Origin: Mobula hypostoma
Taxonomy: Eukaryota
DNA length: 64,000 nt
Direction: 5' to 3'
NCBI RefSeq assembly: GCF_963921235.1
Contig: NC_086108.1
Coordinates: 60,080,001-60,144,000 of the forward strand
Shown: positions 15,561-56,589 of the stretch, piece after piece
Numbering within the stretch: the first letter of the stretch is position 1
Layout of the letters: the number at the start of each line of letters is the position of its first letter
The notes under the pieces: generated by a model
The model's input: the letters and a program-made list of their open reading frames with translations, nothing else
The model's database searches: none
Told to the model about the DNA's origin: nothing
Program-made: the position numbers and the translations under genes

Positions 15561-17067
15561 AGGTGTATTGACACAGTGGCCATTAACGAGCCGGTGTATT
15601 AACACAGTGGCCACTAATGAGTCGGTATACAGGTGTATTAACACGGTGGCCATTAACGCGCCAGTGTATTAACACAGTGGCCATTAACGAGCTGGTGTAT
15701 TAACACAGTGGCCACTAATGAGTCGGTGTACAGGTGTATTAACACGGTGGCCATTAACGAGCCAGTGTATTAACACAGTGGCCATTAGCGAGCTAGTGTA
15801 TTAACACAGTGGCCACTAATGAGTCGGTGTACAGGTGTATTAAGACGGTGGCCATTAACGCGCCAGTGTATTAACACAGTGGCCATTAGCAAGCTGGTGT
15901 ATTAACACAGTGGCCACTAACGAGTCGGTGTACAGGTGTATTAACACGGTGGCCATTAACGAGCCAGTGTATTGACACAGTGGCCATTAACGAGCTGGTG
16001 TATTAACACAGTGGCCACTAATGAGTCGGTGTACAGGTGTATTAACACGGTGGCCATTAACGCGCCAGTGTATTAACACAGTGGCCATTAGCGAGCTGGT
16101 GTATTAACACAGTGGCCACTAATGAGTCGGTGTACAGGTGTATTAAGACGGTGGCCATTAACGCGCCAGTGTATTAACACAGTGGCCATTAGCAAGCTGG
16201 TGTATTAACACAGTGGCCACTAACGAGTCGGTGTACAGGTGTATTAACACGGTGGCCATTAACGAGCCAGTGTATTGACACAGTGGCCATTAACGAGCTG
16301 GTGTATTAACACAGTGGCCACTAATGAGTCGGTGTACAGGTGTATTAACACGGTGGCCATTAACGCGCCAGTGTATTAACACAGTGGCCATTAGCGAGCT
16401 GGTGTATTAACACAGTGGCCACTAATGAGTCGGTGTACAGGTGTATTAAGACGGTGGCCATTAACGCGCCAGTGTATTAACACAGTGGCCATTAACGAGC
16501 TGGTGTATTAACACAGTGGCCACTAATGAGTCGGTGTACAGGTGTATTAACACGGTGGCCATTAACGAGCCAGTGTATTAACACAGTGGCCATTAGCGAG
16601 CTAGTGTATTAACACAGTGGCCACTAATGAGTCGGTGTACAGGTGTATTAAGACGGTGGCCATTAACGCGCCAGTGTATTAACACAGTGGCCATTAACGA
16701 GCTGGTGTATTAACACAGTGGCCACTAACGAGTCGGTGTACAGGTGTATTAACACGGTGGCCATTAACGAGCCAGTGTATTGACACAGTGGCCATTAACG
16801 AGCTGGTGTATTAACACAGTGGCCACTAATGAGTCGGTGTACAGGTGTATTAACACGGTGGCCATTAACGAGCCAGTGTATTAACACAGTGGCCATTAGC
16901 AAGCTGGTGTATTAACACAGTGGCCACTAATGAGTCGGTGTACAGGTGTATTAACACGGTGGCCATTAACGCGCCAGTGTATTAACACAGTGGCCATTAG
17001 CGAGCTGGTGTGTTAACACAGTGGCCACTAATGAGTCGGTGTACAGGTGTATTAACACGGTGGCCAC
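15543..17067. repeat. Satellite with 101-bp higher-order unit (31+31+39 bp), about 15 copies
   Basis: agtcggtg recurs at 15721, 15822 and 15923 (period 101); core subunit gccattaacgagccagtgtattaacacagtg. Confidence 0.95.
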
Positions 17068-19954: not shown

Positions 19955-20532
19955 AGAGGGACTTTGTGCAAGACTCCCAGAAGGTTAATTTACAGGTTGA
20001 GTCTGTGGTAAAGAAGGTAATTGCAATGTTGGCATTTACTTCAAGGGGAATTGAATATAAAAACAAGGAGGTAATGCTGAGCCTTTATAAGACACTAGTC
20101 AGGCCACACTTGAGTATTGTCAACAGTTTTGTGCCCCGTATCTCAGAAAGGATGTGTTGTCATTGGAGAGAGTCCAGAGGAGGTTCACAAGGATGATTCC
20201 GGGAATGAAGGGGTTAACATATAAGGAGCATTTTGTAGTTTTGGGCCTGTACACACTGGAATTTAGAAGAATGCAGGGGGTGGGGGATATCATTGAAACT
20301 GACCAAATGTTGAAAGCACTAGATAAGGTGGATGTGGAGAGGATGATTCCTGTAATGGGGCTATCCAGAACTAGAGGGCACAGCCTCAAAATTGAGGGGC
20401 AACCCTTGGGAACAAAGGTAAGGAGAATTTTTTTAGCCAGAGAGTAGTAAGTCTGTGGAATGCTCTGCCACAGACTCTAGTGGAGGCCAAGTCCATGGGT
20501 ATACTTAAGGCGATCATTTCCTGATCGGTCAG
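19955..20532 (+). mobile_element. CR1 LINE 3' portion, split by the LTR element (continues 23489-23630)
   Basis: LYKTLVRPHL, ERVQRRFTRMIPG and RTRGHSLKI motifs; sequence resumes as gtcag-ggcatcaaaggatatgg after the insertion. Confidence 0.9.
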
Positions 20533-20931
20533 TGTTATGTTACTTCTGTTTAAACGTACTGTGGGTTAACAGTAAAGAATTATATTCTGGAAGAATTAGA
20601 GGACTTTTATTTACAGTAATAAACAAACACGTCTTAACCCAGCTACGTGCTGGAACATTCCGGCAATCCCCCACACGCTCAGTGCTCTGTCCAATCATGT
20701 ACTGGCACATCATTGCACGTGATATCACCACATCTTCCTTTCCTTAAAAAGAAAAACAATTAACAACGTTAGTCAAAACACATCTATATCAGATAACTGA
20801 AACTCTGAAGTTGGCTCTTTCTTCAATCATTTGTGATTCTTTCTTAACACCACTCCCTCCTCTGTTTGGACCATGTATGATCTGGTCTGTGTCCATGTGT
20901 TCCTTTTATCTTGTATCCTCACTTTGTCTCC

Positions 20932-20976
20932 TTGTCCTTCAGACAAACATCTCCTTAGATCAGTCAATTCACGTTC
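20932..20976 (-). pseudogene. RABEP1: Second RABEP1 segment, resuming after the CIN85 insert
   Basis: ERELTDLRRCLSEGQ vs recalled human EREIADLRRRLSEGQ, which lies only a few residues after the first segment in the native protein. Confidence 0.8.
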
Positions 20977-21115
20977 CACTTCCATTTGTAATGAAATATG
21001 AATCTTCTTTTCATAAATCTAATTCATTCATTATTTGTGTAATCTCTTTCTTATGCTGAGACTTCACGATTTCAATAATACTTCTCAATTCCTTCACCTG
21101 TGCTTTCACTTCTTC
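20977..21115 (-). pseudogene. SH3KBP1: Captured fragment of CIN85 C-terminal coiled coil (1-nt frameshift near 21015)
   Basis: EEVKAQVKELRSIIEIVKSQHKKEITQIMNELD/YEKKIHISLQMEV vs recalled human [46 protein letters not shown]; the paralog CD2AP is less likely but not excluded. Confidence 0.85.
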
Positions 21116-21121
21116 CTTATG

Positions 21122-21379
21122 CTGTGAGTGTTCTTGCTCTAGACAGTGATGAAACTGAATCTCATATTCTCTCAGTGTCTCTTTCATTATCGCTTGCATT
21201 GAAGCAACCTCCTCCTGCCATTGCTTCTTCACATCATCAGTTGCCTCCTGTTTGGTCGTCTCAGACACTGCAACTACTGCTTTTATATTCTCCATGTCAG
21301 CATTTGCCTCCATGAGCTGGACCTGCAGTCGAGTTACATCACCTTCTGCCGACTGTAATGCAACATTCTGTCGCTTCAG
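21122..21379 (-). pseudogene. RABEP1: Captured fragment of Rabaptin-5 N-terminal coiled coil, in frame with the retroelement protease end
   Basis: LKRQNVALQSAEGDVTRLQVQLMEANADMENIKAVVAVSETTKQEATDDVKKQWQEEVASMQAIMKETLREYEIQFHHCLEQE aligns without gaps to recalled human LKRQNAVLQAAQDDLGHLRTQLWEAQAEMENIKAIATVSENTKQEAIDEVKRQWREEVASLQAVMKETVRDYEHQFHLRLEQE. Confidence 0.92.
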
Positions 21380-21742
21380 CTCTGTGTCACTATCCAAGAC
21401 AAAAATTCTTTTCACCAAATTAAGTCTTTCACAGGCAGATAAACCCAGAATTGACTGTACATTTTTGGCACGACCACAAATGAAAGCGTATGAACAATAT
21501 TTTTGTATGATACCTTTGCCACGCATGTTCCTTTAACTGGAATGTCTGCACCTGAGTACCAGTCACTATTATATTTGTCTGATGTAACTTCAGTCTTGAT
21601 TTTAAAGCATTAAACTCAGATTCTGCAAGAACATTTACTTGCGCTCCAATATCAAGTTTAAACAGAATATTGTTTTGATTCACTTGCAATGGAATAGTCC
21701 AGTCATTCTCTCTTTGTATATCTTCACAAAGCACATCTATAT

Positions 21743-22414
21743 GGGAGGAGAAGATGGCGGCGCGACGCAGCTCGCCATGGGCACTCCGGTGGTGATGTCT
21801 GTTATTTGTCAGGTAGGGGTGCTGTGCACAATCCTGATTTGATGGAGACAGATGTGAGAGCACGGAGGAACATCTGGTGAAACTTCTGAAATGCCTGCTT
21901 CGCTGCTGCTGCTACTGTGTGATCCAGAATCTCCGGAGGAGAAGGCCCCGAGTCCTCGACCTTGCCTGTTGCTTGGCGGCCAGGGCTGGGGTCGAAGCGC
22001 TCGGCAGAGGATGGTGCTCGGAGAGGCTGTGTCGGAGGGGCTGGTCAGAGGCTCAAAGTTTTCGGACGGACTCAGAGTCCGCTGCGGTCGGGTGCTTCCA
22101 ATGGTGCTGCATCGGTAAGTTTGCAGCGCTTGGAGGTTCATGGCAGGGAGAGTTTCTTCCTTCTGCCGCCTGCATGAGATGATGAGTCTATCGAGACTTT
22201 GAGACTTTTTTTGCTGTGCCCATGGTCTGCTTTTTATCAAATTATGGTATTGCTTTGCACTGTTGTAACTATATGTTATAATCATGCAGTTTTGTAAGTT
22301 TTAGTCTTGGTTTGTCCCATGTTTTTCTTGTGATATCATTCTGGAGGAACGTTGTATCATTTTTTAATGCATGCATTTCTAAATGACAATTAACAAGGAC
22401 TGAGTATCCTCATA
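21743..22414 (+). mobile_element. Non-autonomous LINE-derived element nested in the Gypsy gag-protease junction
   Basis: 8-bp TSD ATCTATAT (21735-21742, 22415-22422); removing it restores EEFYID-VLCEDIQ; CpG-rich 5' end GGGAGGAGAAGATGGCGGCG; AT-rich LINE-like 3' tail. Confidence 0.85.
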
Positions 22415-23488
22415 ATCTATATAAAATTCCTCACGTTCATCTTCAAGCACAGTATTTACTTGTTTCATTTTATTTTCCTTCTTTCTACTTTTACAACAGT
22501 GTGATCTTACCGCAGCCATTGCAAATTTTGCCATATGCAGGACGCTGATTTGTATAATGTTCCCGCGCATAGCGATCACATGACTTTTTTCTTTCCAATG
22601 GCATCTTGCTCTCTGTCAGTTTCGTCAAAGTATTATTATATTTCTTGATGTATTCGTGCTTTTTTACAGCATTTATATTGCAGTTTTTGACAAAAAGCTC
22701 TTCAGCCTGCAATGTCACGGTCTCAGAAGCTTTGCAAAGCACCAAAGCGTTTTCAAAATTTAAACCTTGCTCTCTCAACATCCTTTCTCTCAGAACGTTA
22801 TCTCAAATGCCACAAACAAGTCTATCTTTAATGAGAGAGTCTGTGAGCAATCCAAACTCACATGTTCTACTACGCTTTCTTAACTCAGTAACATACTGAT
22901 CAATTGTTTCAGCGGCTCTCTGTGCACATGTGAAGAACTCATATCGCTCATACGTTAAATTATGCTTAAGTATACAAAATACTTCAAATCTGTCCTTTAT
23001 TGACTTTAAATTGAAATTATCTCCATCTTCAAAGACAAAATTATTATATACCTCTACTGCGTCATTCCCGATTACATGGAGCAAAAACGCAGCTTTGATT
23101 TTTTCCGATTTTCCTTCATAATTGATCACTGATAAGTACAGTTCAAACTGTTGCTTGAATATCCTCCAATTCTCAGCTCCATTGTCAGTCAGCTGAAGTT
23201 TTGGTGGGGGTTGTAAACCTTCCATTTTACCGTTTACAGTTTGAACTTTTCTCTCTTTTTCTCGATTATCTTTGATTCTCGATTCTCGATTCTCCCGTAT
23301 TATTCTTCCAGAACCACTTCTAACACCATGTTATGTTACTTCTGTTTAAACGTACCGTGGGTTAACAGTAAAGAATAATATTCTGGAAGAATTAGAGAAC
23401 CTAGAACACTGAGCATGTGCAATCCCGCACATGCTCAGTGCTCTGTCCAACCATGTACTGGCACATCATTGCACGTGATATCACCACA

Positions 23489-23630
23489 GTCAGGGCATCA
23501 AAGGATATGGTGAGAAGGCAGGTGTACGGGGTTGAGTGGGATCCGGGATCAGCCATGATGGAATGGTGGAGCAGACTCGATGGTCTGAATGGCCTAAATC
23601 TGCTCCTTTGTTTTATGGTTTTATGGTCTG
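23489..23630 (+). mobile_element. CR1 3' UTR (continuation of 19955-20532)
   Basis: ggatatggtgagaaggcagg...gaatggcctaa...ttatggtct tail. Confidence 0.85.
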
Positions 23631-27366: not shown

Positions 27367-29693
27367 TGTTACATGGGGCGCTGGGAGCAGACCCAAATGC
27401 AAGACACAAACACTGTTTGTGAGGTTAATTAAACTGAGTTTATTGCTCGTTACAAGGAGAGCAAAGCAGAAGCGGGAATAGCGTAATGGACAAGGACTGA
27501 GGCCCTGGACTAGGCCGGGACTAAGGGTCTGGGCTAGGACTCGGAGCTCGGACTTGATACTTGAAACCCCCTGAGCCAGGACTTGATACTTGAAACCCCC
27601 TGAGCCAGGACCCAATACTTGAAACCCCCTGAGCCAGGACTTGACACTTGAAACCCCCTGAGCCAGGACTTGATACTTGAAACCCCCAGAGCCAGGACTT
27701 GATACTTGAAACCCCCTGAGCCAGGACATGTTACTTGAAACCTCTAGAACCAGGACTTTATTCTTGAAACCCCCTGAGCCAGGACCGGATACTTGAAACC
27801 CCCTGAGCCAGGACTTGACACTTGAAACCCCCTGAGCCAGGACTTGATACTTGAAACCCCCTGAGCCAGGACTCGATACTTGAAACCCCCTGAGCCAGGA
27901 CCTGATACTTGAAACCCCCTGAGCCAGGACCTGATACTTGAAACCACCTGAGCCAGGACCCGATACTTCAAACCCCCTGAGCCAGGACTTGATACTTGAA
28001 ACCCCCTGAGCCAGGACATGTTACTTGAAACCTCTAGAACCAGGACTTTATACTTGAAACCCCCTGAGCCAGGACTCGATACTTGAAACCCCCTGAGCCA
28101 GGACCGGATACTTGAAACCCCCTGAGCCAGGACTTGATACTTGAAACCCCCTGAGCCAGGACATGTTACTTGAAACCTCTAGAACCAGGACTTTATACTT
28201 GAAACCCCCTGAGCCAGGACTCGATACTTGAAACCCCCTGAGCCAGGACCGGATACTTGAAACCCCCTGAGCCAGGACTTGACACTTGAAACCCCCTGAG
28301 CCAGGACTTGATACTTGAAACCCCCAGAGCCAGGACTTGATACTTGAAACCCCCTGAGCCAGGACATGTTACTTGAAACCTCTAGAACCAGGACTTTATT
28401 CTTGAAACCCCCTGAGCCAGGACCGGATACTTGAAACCCCCTGAGCCAGGACTTGACACTTGAAACCCCCTGAGCCAGGACTTGATACTTGAAACCCCCT
28501 GAGCCAGGACTCGATACTTGAAACCCCCTGAGCCAGGACCTGATACTTGAAACCCCCTGAGCCAGGACCCGATACTTGAAACCCCCAGAGCCAGGACTTG
28601 ATACTTGAAACCCCCTGAGCCAGGACATGTTACTTGAAAACTCTAGAACCAGGACTTTATTCTTGAAACCCCCTGAGCCAGGACCGGATACTTGAAACCC
28701 CCAGAGCCAGGACTTGACACTTGAAACCCCCTGAGCCAGGACTTGATACTTGAAACCCCCTGAGCCAGGACTCGATACTTGAAACCCCCTGAGCCAGGAC
28801 CTGATACTTGAAACCCCCTGAGCCAGGCCCTGATACTTGAAACCACCTGAGCCAGGACCCGATACTTCAAACCCCCTGAGCCAGGACTTGATACTTGAAA
28901 CCCCCTGAGCCAGGACTCGATACTTGAAACCCCCTGAGCCAGGACCGGATACTTGAAACCCCCTGAGCCAGGACTTGATACTTGAAACCCCCTGAGCCAG
29001 GACATGTTACTTGAAACCTCTAGAACCAGGACTTTATACTTGAAACCCCCTGAGCCAGGACTCGATACTTGAAACCCCCTGAGCCAGGACCGGATACTTG
29101 AAACCTCGGAACCAGGGTCTCTTCTTATTCACGGGACAGACTCAGACACAGGACATAAAACATAGAGCCGGGAATCCTCCTTAGACACAGGACGGAGTCG
29201 GGACTCTTCTTGACACAGGGTCAGGACCCTTCCAGGGTACAGGGCCGGGACCCCTTTTAGACACAGGACATGGATATGGAGACCACACAACGATGGACAG
29301 TACTATAATTGGGCACAAGTACGCTCCAAGCCGTGGCGAGCTCTTGACTCACCCTGGCGGGTTAACTTTGACCGACCCCCTCTGGCAAGGGAAGGCGGCT
29401 TGCTGGCACTTGCTTTGGGAGGAGACTAGGTTTGCTCCGGCAAGAAACTTAGTTGGCTCCGGCCAGATGACACAGGCTCGCACTACCTTCGGTGACTTCA
29501 TTAACACTCTCGCGCCGAACAGCTGAAAGCCGGAGACTTATAAACTGCCTGTCCAGCCAAGAGTAAATTGCCTCTAAGCACCAAGCCCAAAGGACACGGG
29601 AAAACCGGGAACCAAAGGGAAACAGGGAGTCAACGGTCCAGATCATAACACAAACAAAGTAAGCTTAAAGGGAATCTGATCCGGACCATGACA
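27367..29693 (-). mobile_element. Gypsy solo LTR enlarged by an internal minisatellite
   Basis: TGTTAC...ATGACA termini; 5-bp TSD CCTCC (27362-27366, 29694-29698); acccaaatgca motif shared with the Sushi-like LTR at ~13024; minus-strand AATAAA near 27440. Confidence 0.88.
27545..29115. repeat. 29-bp tandem repeat (gagccaggacttgatacttgaaaccccct), about 54 copies
   Basis: Period 29; the variant unit catgttacttgaaa recurs at 27727, 28017, 28162, 28365, 28626 and 29003, all multiples of 29 apart. Confidence 0.95.
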
Positions 29694-52312: not shown

Positions 52313-55294
52313 CTATTGAATTCAATCCCTCTAGCAATGAAGGCCAACATTTTGTTTACCTTCTTAATAACCTGTTGTACCTGCAAGCCAACTTTTTGCG
52401 ATTCATGAACAAGCGCTCCCAAGTCCTTCTGCACAACAGCATGCTGCAATCTTTCACCATTTAAATAATAATCTGCTCTTCTATTATTCCTTCCAAGGTG
52501 GATGATCTTGCATTTACCATGATGGTATTCCATCTACCAGACCTTGGCCCACTCACTTAACCTATCTATACCCCTCTGCAGACTCTCCACATCCTCTGTA
52601 CAATTTGCTTTTTTACTCGGTTTAGTGTCATCAGCAAATTTTGCTATGCTACACTCAGTCCCCTCTTCCAAATCATCAATGTAAATGGTAAACAGCTGCG
52701 GGCCCAGCACCGACCCCTGTGGCACCGCACTCACCACTGACTGCCAACCGGAGAAACACCCATTTATACCAACTCTCTGCCTTTTATTGGTTAACCAATC
52801 AACTATCCATGCCAATACACTTCCTCTGACTCCATGCATCCGTATCTTATTTATAAGTCTCTTGTGTAGCACCTTATCAAGTGCCTTCTGGAAATCCAAG
52901 TATACGACATCCACCTGTTCCCCTCTATCCACTGCACTCATTATGTCCTCAAAGAACTCCAGTAAGTTTGTCAAACAGGACCTGCCCTTTCTGAATCCGT
53001 GCTGCATCTGTCTAATGGAACCACTCCTTTGTAAATGTTTCATGATTTCTTCCTTAAAGACAGCTTCAAGCATTTTCCCAACTACAGATGTTAAGCTAAC
53101 TGGCCTATATTTGCCCGTTTTTTGCCTACATTCTTTCTTAAAAAGTGGCATGACATTTGCTGTCTTCCATTCCACTGGGACCTGCCCAGAGTCTAGAGAA
53201 TTTTGCTAAATGGTTACCAACGTCTCTACTATAACCTCTGCCAATTCCCTCAGCATCCTGGGATGCATCCCATCAGGACCGGGGGACTTATCTACCTTCA
53301 TGCCCTCTAGTTTGCTCATCACTATTTCTTTAGTGACAGTGATTTTATCAAGGTCCTCACCTCCCATTTCGTCCATTACATCCTTCTTTGGCATATTAGA
53401 CATGTCCTCCATCATGAAGACCGACACAAAATAGTTGTTCAATGCCTCAGCCATTTCCTTATCACCCAATATCAATTTCCCCTTCTCATCTTCCAAGGAA
53501 CCTACGTTGACTTTAGCCACCCTCTTCCACTTCATATATTTATAAAGACTTTTGCTATCTGTTTTTTTTATTTTGTACTGATTTGCTTTCATACTCTATC
53601 TTCTCTTTCCTTATTTCTTGTTTAGTTGTTCTCTGTTCCTTTTTAAAGTTTTCCCAATTCTCCAGTCTCCCACTACTCTTTGCAACTTTGTACACATGAG
53701 CTTTTAATTTGATATTATTTATTTCCTTAGTTATCTAAGGCTGGCTCTCCCACACTTACTGTCCTTACTTTTGACTGGAATATACTTTTGTTGAGCACTG
53801 TGAAAAATCTCTTTGAAAGTATTCCACTGTTCCTCAACTGTCCTACCAAATAGCCTGTGCTCCCAATCCACATTAGCCAACTCCTCCCTCATCCCGTTGT
53901 AGTCTCCCTTGTTCAAGCATAATACACTAGCTTTAGATCTAACTATTTCATCCTCCATCTACATGCAAAATTCAATCATACTATGAACGTTCTTTCCAAG
54001 AGGATCCTTGACTACAAGGTCATTAATCTTACCTGTCTCATTGCACAGGACTAGATCTAAGATAGCATTTTCCCTTGTAGGTTCACTAACAGACTGATCA
54101 AGAAAGCTATCACAGATACATTCTATGAAGTCCTCCTCAAGATTTCCTTGACCAACCTGCTTCACCCAATCTATGTGGAAGTTAAAATCCCTCATGACAA
54201 CTACCGTTCCATTCTTACAAGCCTCAGTTATTTCCTGGTTAATCGCCTCTGCCACTGCAATATTTTTATTAGGTGGCCTATAGACAACTCCCACCAGCAA
54301 TTTTTTCCCCTTTACTATTCTTAATCTCTACCCAGATGGGCTCAACATTCTGCTCCATAGATCTTATATTATCTCTCACAATCACCCTGATCTCATCCCT
54401 AATCAAGAGAGCCACCTCACCTCCCCTGCCTTCCTGCCTATCTTTCTGTATTATCTGATACCCTTGGATATTTAATTCCCAGTCATCTCCACCTTGCAAC
54501 CATGTTTCTGTAATGGCTACTAAATCATATGCCTTGGTACTGATCTGGGCCACAAGTTCACTAACCTTGTTTCTGATACTACGGGCATTTAGATAAAGTG
54601 CCCTTATACCCATTATCCTTTTAGAATCTAGTGACCTATGCGATTTTTGCTTTTTACTTTTATGCACTCTACTCTTATTTTTTCTTCACTAACTCAGCTT
54701 TGGTCTCTGCATCACTTCCCTCTTCTTTTCCGTACTGGCTCCCATCCCCCTGCCATATTAGTTTTAAACCTCCTCAACAGCCCTAGCAAACAATCTCCTA
54801 GGACATTGTTCCCGGCCCTGCCCAGATGTAGACTGTCCGGACGGTACTGGTCCCACCTCCCCCAGAAGCAGTTCCAATGCCCCCAAGAATTTGAAACCCT
54901 CCCTCCTGCAACACCACTCAAGTCACATGTTCATTCTAGTTATCCTGATATTCTAATTCTGGCTAGCATATGGCACCGGTAATAATCCTGAGATTATTAC
55001 CTTTGAGATCCTACTCTTTAATTTATCTCCTAGCTCCCTAAATTCAGCTTGTAGGACCTCATCCCACTTTCTTCCTATATCGTTAGTACCTACATGCACC
55101 ACGACAGCTGGCTGCTCACCCTCCCCTTTCAGAGTGCCCTGCAGCCTCTCTGAGACATCTCTGACCCTTGCACCCGGGAGGCAACACACTATATGGGAGC
55201 AACAGGAATTCTGCAGATGCTGGAAATTCAAGCAACACACATCAAAGTTGCTGGTGAATGCAGCAGGCCAGGCAGCATCTCCAGGAAGAGGTGC

Positions 55295-55330
55295 AGTCGA
55301 CATTTCAGGCCGAGACCCTTCATCAGGACT
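55295..55330 (-). ncRNA. Second hammerhead motif in the inverted Penelope end
   Basis: Minus strand agtcCTGATGAagggtctcggcctGAAAtGTCgact. Confidence 0.65.
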
Positions 55331-56589
55331 AACATTTCCGACACCTCCCTCCCCTTTCTAGATCTTTCTGTCTCTGTCTCTGGAGACAGCTTATCCACTG
55401 ATGTCTACTATAAGCCTACTGACTCTCACAGCTATCTGGACTATTCCTCTTCTCACCCTGTCTCTTGCAAAAACGCTATCCCCTTCTTGCAATTCCTCCG
55501 TCTCCGCCGCATCTGCTCTCAGGATGAGGCTTTTCATTCTAGGATGAGGGAGATGTCTTCCTTTTTTAAAGAAAGGGGCTTCCCTTCCTCCACTATCATC
55601 TCTGCTCTTAAACGCATCTCCCCCATTTCACGTACATCTGCTCTCACTCCATCCTCCCACCACCCCACTAGGAATAGGGTTCCCCTGGTCCTCACCTACC
55701 ACCCCACCAGCCTCCGGGTCCAACATATTATTCTCCGTAACTTCCGCCACCTCCAACGGGATCCCACCACTAAGCACATCTTTCCCTCCCCCCCACTCTC
55801 TGCATTCCGCAGGGATCGCTCCCTACGCAACTCCCTTGTCCTTTCGTCCCCCCCATCCCTCCCCACTGATCTCCCTCCTGGAACTTATCCGTGTAAGCGG
55901 AACAAGTGCTACACATGCCCTTACACTTCCTCCCTTACCACCATTCAGGGCCCCAAACAGTCCTTCCAGGTGAGGCAACACTTCACCTGTGAGTCGACTG
56001 GGGTGATATACTGTGTCCGGTGCTCCCGATGTGGCCTTTTATATATTGGCGAGACCCGACGCAGACTGGGAGACCGCTTTGCTGAACATCTACCCTCTGT
56101 CCGCCAGAGAAAGCAGGATCTCCCAGTGGCCACACATTTTAATTCCACATCCCATTCCCATTCTGACATGTCTATCCACGGCCTCCTCTACTGTAAAGAT
56201 GAAGCCACACTCAGGTTGGAGGAACAACACCTTATATTCCGTCTGGGTAGCCTCCAACCTGATGGCATGAACATCGACTTCTCTAACTTCCGCTAAGGCC
56301 CCACCTCCCCCTCATACCCCATCTGTTACTTATTTTTATACACACATTCTTTCTCTCACTCTCCTTTTTCTCCCTCTGTCCCTCTGAATATACCCCTTGC
56401 CCATCCTCTGGGTCCCCCCCCCCTTGTCTTTCTTCCCGGACCCCCTGTCCCATGATCCTCTCATATCCCTTTTGCCAATCACCTGTCCAGCTCTCGGCTC
56501 TATCCCTCCCCCTCCTGTCTTCTCCTATCATTTTGGATCTCCCCCTCCCCCTCCAACTTTCAAATCCCTTACTCACTCTTCCTTCAGTT

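Follow-up and report, generated by a model that had tools for sequence, protein, structure and literature searches.

Spliced RABEP1 and SH3KBP1 fragments nested in a multi-copy Gypsy-type LTR element of a ray genome

The window, by which we mean the whole 64,000-nt stretch of Mobula hypostoma DNA that was analysed, contains a decayed member of a non-autonomous Gypsy LTR element family, present in many copies, in which spliced RABEP1 sequence stands in the place of the pol core and spliced SH3KBP1 sequence is nested in frame within it, the nesting having probably arisen by reverse-transcriptase template switches between sister elements carrying RABEP1 and SH3KBP1. The ray genome holds hundreds of defective element copies with spliced pieces of three host genes (RABEP1, SH3KBP1 and SLU7), and the nesting is a family trait, not a one-off.

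Architecture of the element and identity of its cargo

The element occupies 2,956 bp on the minus strand of the window (positions 20533–23488; Table 1). Its order from the 5' LTR is gag, an insertion of 672 bp private to this copy, protease, RABEP1, SH3KBP1, a second stretch of RABEP1, the integrase tail and finally the 3' LTR; the pol core is swapped for spliced RABEP1 exons 3–4 with 141 nt of spliced SH3KBP1 (CIN85) within exon 4. Hallmarks of Ty3/Gypsy elements are present (TG...CA LTRs, a target-site duplication, a primer-binding-site-like stretch and a purine tract), and the full-length parent L182 has the PR-RT-RNaseH-IN domain order (Pfam) as in Ty3/Gypsy. The gag of the window copy gave no Pfam match and is identified by its alignment to L182.

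Table 1. Features of the nested element copy (positions are those of the window)
Feature	Position	Strand	Basis
5-bp target-site duplication	23489–23493	-	perfect match to 20528–20532
5' LTR (TG...CA), lacking 40 internal nt that the 3' LTR has	23329–23488	-	LTR comparison
Putative primer-binding-site-like stretch, TGG start, directly after the 5' LTR	23317–23328	-	sequence
gag, decayed, backbone clade B	22415–23225	-	alignment to full-length copy L182
Later insertion of 672 bp, common interspersed repeat with 8-bp duplication, private to the window copy	21743–22414	.	
End of gag and aspartic protease region	21384–21742	-	Pfam gag-asp_proteas at the equivalent region of L182
RABEP1 exon 3, continuing the frame of the protease region; 97.5% to host	21181–21383	-	
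RABEP1 exon 4, 5' part, intron (~9 kb) to exon 3 gone; private 9-nt deletion near 21121	21112–21180	-	
SH3KBP1/CIN85 coiled-coil segment; exon junctions at about 21051/21050 and 20986/20985; 4-nt and 7-nt microhomologies at its ends	20974–21115	-	
Continuation of RABEP1 exon 4 (93% to host), stopping within the exon at 8 nt of microhomology with integrase	20924–20980	-	
Integrase C-terminal tail with family-wide 27-nt in-frame deletion	20783–20931	-	
3' LTR, preceded by a purine tract	20533–20732	-	
5-bp target-site duplication	20528–20532	-	

An earlier note on this DNA had proposed that a CIN85 coiled coil sits inside a RABEP1 fragment. This is borne out, the interruption running from 21115 to 20974 and RABEP1 resuming at 20980. 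The RABEP1 part matches Pfam Rabaptin (E 2.9e-36) as well as ray RABEP1 proteins, and its DNA is 93–98% identical to host exons 3 and 4. The insert is the CIN85 C-terminal coiled coil by PDB match (5abs/2n64, E ~5e-6); in a sister copy the corresponding piece has 96% identity to ray SH3KBP1, and CD2AP was absent among the 70 hits obtained when the insert protein of the sister copy was compared. The host genes, which match Mobula proteins at 98–100% in exons, lie on contig C71 (RABEP1) and contig C18 (SH3KBP1); one C18 match considered as the host SH3KBP1 gene was rejected, being an element copy. Relative to host RABEP1, exon 3 and a portion of exon 4 are present in the element while the intron of roughly 9 kb is missing, and the nested insert crosses two SH3KBP1 exon junctions with both introns missing. 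Since exon junctions are spanned without introns, both cargos derive from spliced RNA. Two introns are likewise missing from the SLU7 cargo.

Host RABEP1 exon 4, which was inspected for the CIN85 segment, does not contain it and reads ...GGAAG-C-AGTGGAA.... In nested copies the single host base C is replaced by 130 nt, a net gain of 129 nt or 43 codons, and contigs of two putative-RNA runs skip exactly 129 nt at the nesting site. It had been thought that about eight RABEP1 residues are missing at the break; against the RABEP1 gene of the ray itself, the replacement amounts to a single base. The W-A-Q codons are at full spacing in 36/37 anchored copies and are 9 nt short only in the window copy, and the H-K-E that follows the break is RABEP1's own Y-K-E, so that the apparent loss is explained by the private 9-nt deletion of the window copy together with differences between human and ray. 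Microhomology, as had been anticipated, was found at both joins. At the left join the shared stretch is 4 nt (GAAG), within a 10-of-12 match; at the right join, formerly read as sharing one GAA codon, it is 7 nt (AGTGGAA). The joins between element and cargo are of the same kind, with 6 nt at element>RABEP1, 8 nt at RABEP1>element, 8 nt at element>SH3KBP1, 7 nt at SH3KBP1>element and 4 nt at both ends of the SLU7 capture; microhomologies at the inspected capture joins range from 3 to 8 nt.

The proposal that the two genes form one continuous helix fails for the window copy, which carries a net +1 frameshift and a stop at 21013–21011, within the SH3KBP1 segment, so that its helix is broken. For in-frame sisters it agrees with prediction: in the unaltered in-frame stretch of a sister copy, AlphaFold2 run on the single sequence gave one helix spanning residues 3–149. 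This predicted helix is trivial, however, as it would be expected of any in-frame coiled-coil join.

Elsewhere in the window we noted two tandem arrays, of 101 bp x 15 at 15563–17066 and of 29 bp x 54 at 27550–29105, the latter holding long stop-free frames at 27–29 kb. Positions 52534–56296 contain a minus-strand reverse-transcriptase frame (RVT_1, E 1.7e-23) and a plus-strand 380-aa frame with a weak GIY-YIG match, and are probably a Penelope-like element. A Narcine RABEP1 isoform model (P0009) ends in a reverse-transcriptase segment (PF00078) that is apparently LINE-derived.

Element families and the origin of the nested form

At least 53 distinct nested copies are dispersed through the genome, many with both LTRs and target-site duplications. 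Of 525 candidates 40 were scored, and each of these aligns over almost the entire 521-nt core at 89–100%; in 29/30 copies read, the 520-nt core is interrupted by a stop or frameshift. These are old, decaying insertions. Full-length parents with the PR-RT-RNaseH-IN order occur on the same backbone. A search for sister elements with RABEP1 only, suggested in the earlier note, was successful: 27 of 28 pattern matches are non-host, and no SH3KBP1 was seen in the 19/19 read. A further family carries SH3KBP1 only (161 matches, with 150 of 267 candidates scored), its cargo corresponding to about aa 540–667 (384 nt), and 30/30 loci read lack RABEP1.

A search for the junction at which RABEP1 passes into SH3KBP1 (RABEP1>SH3KBP1) gave 129 matches (control 14), of which 100 were listed, 26 of these having already been collected and 60 being newly read. 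Among the matches listed, the 60 newly read sites comprise 15 nested copies, 5 RABEP1>SH3KBP1 copies, 36 RABEP1>SH3KBP1>SLU7 copies and 4 that are unclear. The 5 RABEP1>SH3KBP1 copies run on to the integrase junction of the SH3KBP1-only family itself. For SLU7, 69/78 protein matches lie outside the host locus (G000:C21:67.56–67.59 Mb), the SH3KBP1 piece stands upstream in 30/30 SLU7 loci read, and no SLU7-only element was seen; members of the three-gene family include L215, L255 and L275–L304. Other cargos were absent from 60 backbone-anchored loci, 45 of them carrying pol; its anchor was clade A and it did not pick up SLU7, so that there may be additional cargos. In clade B, four truncated copies run into sequences that are mutually unrelated and were read as later insertions. 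As side observations, classes without the protease region have been amplified (L088, L092–L094, L096, L098 and most RABEP1>SH3KBP1>SLU7 copies), in which gag is kept through the Cys/His knuckle and fused in frame to RABEP1, and one copy, L258, has a tandem duplication of about 166 nt across the RABEP1>SH3KBP1 junction.

Median mismatches between paired LTRs are 0.088 for nested (n=15), 0.089 for RABEP1-only (n=6) and 0.083 for SH3KBP1-only copies (n=24), one outlier that is not an LTR pair being included in each of two groups; the three families are of the same age bracket. P0001, P0002 and P0126, which NCBI annotates as genes in Hemitrygon and Hypanus, are copies of these elements, and such models show the nested or RABEP1>SH3KBP1 form as well as the SH3KBP1-only form, which suggests that these forms predate the split of those rays. 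One of the stingray models is named 'rab GTPase-binding effector protein 1-like', and element copies give misleading 'RABEP1-like' gene models in stingray annotations (P0001).

RABEP1-only copies have the host codon intact at the insertion site. They are hence not deletion products of the nested form, and RABEP1 capture came first. The earlier note had envisaged sequential capture, with SH3KBP1 as the second gene taken into the RABEP1 fragment. The precedence of RABEP1 over the nesting is upheld, but a second capture is not, because a sister lineage took SH3KBP1 on its own and RABEP1>SH3KBP1 elements end at the SH3KBP1>integrase junction of that lineage. The CIN85 piece therefore most likely came from the RNA of a sister element and not from a second capture of mRNA. 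In a gag-protease tree, 8/8 RABEP1-only and 36/36 SH3KBP1-only rows are intermixed with 13 full-length rows in one clade (100/100), and 29/29 nested rows stand with 14 full-length rows in another, indicating that cargo lineages swapped backbones with autonomous copies and that the RABEP1 and SH3KBP1 families were active together.

In the course of events that we propose, RABEP1 and SH3KBP1 would have been captured separately from co-packaged mRNA. A crossover between a RABEP1 and an SH3KBP1 element at GAAG would have given the RABEP1>SH3KBP1 form, from which a second crossover back to a RABEP1 element at AGTGGAA would have produced the nested form and to which the addition of SLU7 would have given the three-gene derivative. 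The cargo elements would be mobilised in trans by full-length copies.

The sequence cannot prove the donor of the nested piece, since the SH3KBP1-only family equals the host across the nested 141 nt and no site within them separates the two. It is conceivable that a RABEP1 element switched template twice and so acquired the CIN85 piece directly from SH3KBP1 mRNA, and that the RABEP1>SH3KBP1 form came later by a crossover between nested and SH3KBP1-only elements in the shared 141 nt. The piece does match the host as well as it matches the SH3KBP1-only family, nested copies with the host allele at one marker site are known (L029, L221 and L269), and the two classes of SH3KBP1 5' junction could mean that the same mRNA was captured more than once. 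However, three events would be needed against two, the same gene would have been captured twice, within the very 384 nt that a co-active family already carried, and RABEP1>SH3KBP1 elements with the SH3KBP1-only junction are abundant. We therefore regard direct capture as unlikely and favour crossover between sister elements. The nested and RABEP1>SH3KBP1 lineages each have derived alleles of their own, which do not polarise the order of the two forms. One copy of RABEP1>SH3KBP1 type, L251, carries the allele of the nested lineage, consistent with exchange also in the opposite direction or with repeat mutation.

That the arrangement is a domesticated new host gene, or an artefact of assembly, is extremely improbable. 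The stingray gene models might be taken to favour it, as might the contigs of putative-RNA runs (their RNA status being a guess), which cover spliced host mRNA and some element joins and, in one run, cross element-cargo joins. None of the runs listed with this stretch is on record as RNA, and the contigs are no more than a slight hint of expression. Against this reading, a stop, a frameshift and an insertion disrupt the window copy, for which it is refuted, and nearly all nested copies read are disrupted in the core; the copies are numerous and dispersed, many of them bearing LTR pairs and target-site duplications, and the stretch is present in runs of several studies.

Reading frame and selection

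In every recurrent junction class the modal form is in frame (16/16, with a further 4/4 found later, giving 20/20), although several classes rest on 2–6 copies, S428>E is modal in only 3/8 anchor matches and one class was re-found in 1 copy. The apparent out-of-frame state of two classes was an artefact of alignment ends. The two RABEP1-SH3KBP1 joins are uninformative on selection, since the exact 7-mers common to both cargos are in frame in 8/8 cases. For the 18 informative classes, the share expected to be in frame by chance is about 0.35–0.45; element x cargo microhomologies of at least 6 nt are in frame at 0.41–0.44, and element x cargo and element x element matches at 0.40–0.44, or 0.46–0.51 at ≥9 nt. 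For the 18/18 observed, 0.45^18 is about 6e-7 (hand arithmetic, on classes chosen after inspection). Single-copy junctions are in frame in 13/35 cases and private cargo indels in 11/83. Exceptions to the open frame are the loss of 1 nt at the very 3' end of the SH3KBP1 cargo, common to 16/37 SH3KBP1-only copies, and two nested pairs, L006/L012 (C68) and L015/L028 (C9), which share frameshifts or stops but not flanks. The members of these pairs lie a few Mb apart, and either gene conversion or the spread of a broken copy in trans could account for them. These exceptions aside, amplified rearrangements keep one open frame from gag, and all amplified classes keep gag.

In the cargo protein itself no constraint on amino acids is visible. 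Private and shared cargo substitutions agree with the neutral expectation, the shared substitutions of the RABEP1 part (n≥4) comprise 13 non-synonymous and 4 synonymous changes, and lineage-wide cargo changes are largely non-synonymous; a test for purifying selection on the cargo protein did not detect it. In-frame junctions combined with neutral amino-acid drift suggest that translation in cis, and not a new protein, was under selection. Judged from these substitutions and junctions, the best reading is that selection would have kept a long open frame from gag, in cis, and not the chimeric helix. RNAs that are open in a single long frame from gag may have had the advantage during amplification, through translation in cis or through escape from nonsense-mediated decay.

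Two other accounts of the frame were weighed. One dispenses with selection, supposing that the reverse transcriptase tends to switch templates at longer, imperfect matches and that such matches, where both partners are coding, are mostly codon-aligned. Between the two cargos RABEP1 and SH3KBP1 this has some force, since 19/24 near-matching 12-mers are in frame in addition to all of the exact 7-mers, and a shared frameshift and frameshift-sharing pairs do occur. We nevertheless hold it to be unlikely, because the in-frame shares of element x cargo and element x element matches fall well short of the 18/18 observed and because plain deletions within element sequence (27, 33 and 150 nt) are also multiples of three. 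The other account, which is very unlikely, is that the chimeric coiled coil was itself selected, as a Gag fusion aiding particle assembly or packaging, and that helical, charged cargos were kept and multiplied for this reason. All three cargos are charged or coiled-coil and are read in their native frame, the hydrophobic register is, by inspection, kept at both RABEP1-SH3KBP1 joins, the CIN85 coiled coil is described as trimerising in the part of PMC10786037 on which we draw, and RABEP1>SH3KBP1 junction sites outnumber RABEP1-only sites (129, with the control at 14, against 27). A selected helix is, however, at odds with the neutral ratio of non-synonymous to synonymous substitutions in the cargo and with the predominance of non-synonymous lineage-wide changes; in-frame deletions have shortened the cargo repeatedly, and purine-rich coiled-coil codons alone supply in-frame microhomology. 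Selection for the open frame in cis remains our preferred reading.

Known systems and significance

The mechanism is known, and what appear to be new, set against the portions of the literature cited here, are the scale and the preserved intermediates. In LTR-mediated retroposition, as far as the excerpt of Tan 2016 (PMC5131818) describes it, spliced mRNA replaces part of an internal ORF with microsimilarity at the switches (median 6 bp), multi-gene chimeras are formed and secondary mobilisation occurs. The ray elements are alike in having intron-less host fragments in an internal ORF, microsimilarity at switch points (3–8 here), multi-gene chimeras and switch points shared among re-mobilised copies. 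They differ in that the retrocopies in that excerpt are low-copy, whereas the five architectures in the ray number from a few to >100 copies each, and in that cargo lies inside cargo with single-gene and single-crossover intermediates surviving in one genome. Maize Bs1, in the passages of PMC5131818 and PMC13317346 available to us, is likewise an LTR element with fragments of three unlinked host genes and a hybrid ORF; it has 1–5 copies and is a transcribed and translated chimeric gene, whereas the ray copies are many and decayed and their cargo drifts neutrally. The fusion ORF of mouse IAP 1Δ1 acts in cis to aid retrotransposition, according to the portion of PMC6466679 considered. It resembles the ray elements as a non-autonomous LTR element with an in-frame internal rearrangement, but it is an ERV deletion product without host cargo whose cis effect is experimental, whereas in the ray such an effect is suggested by junction statistics.

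The ray parent shares with Ty3/Gypsy (Metaviridae-type) elements the gag-PR-RT-RH-IN order, TG...CA LTRs and 5-bp duplications, and no env-sized frame was seen between integrase and the 3' LTR of the full-length parent. Fusion of gag to cargo resembles the gag-onc transduction of acutely transforming retroviruses; unlike in these, the ray cargo shows no sign of function. Among the papers listed in a literature search, which mostly covered journals other than subscription ones, we found no relevant report joining RABEP1, SH3KBP1 and a retrotransposon, nor one of this ray family.

The usual picture of LTR gene capture is one of single end products in low copy number. The ray genome preserves the steps together: single-gene captures, a single crossover, the nested form and a three-gene derivative. 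It thereby makes countable the question of whether multi-gene chimeras arise by recombination between elements or by repeated capture of mRNA, as well as the question of whether non-autonomous Gypsy elements depend on an open frame in cis. More tentatively, and as a possibility that we think doubtful as a whole, this vertebrate Gypsy family may be a long-lived germ-line exon-shuffling network, in which cargo elements recombine with one another and with two autonomous subfamilies, three host genes are stacked in frame behind gag, a filter for the open frame would yield translatable chimeras by the hundred, and the CIN85 trimer helix may give an advantage in transposition.
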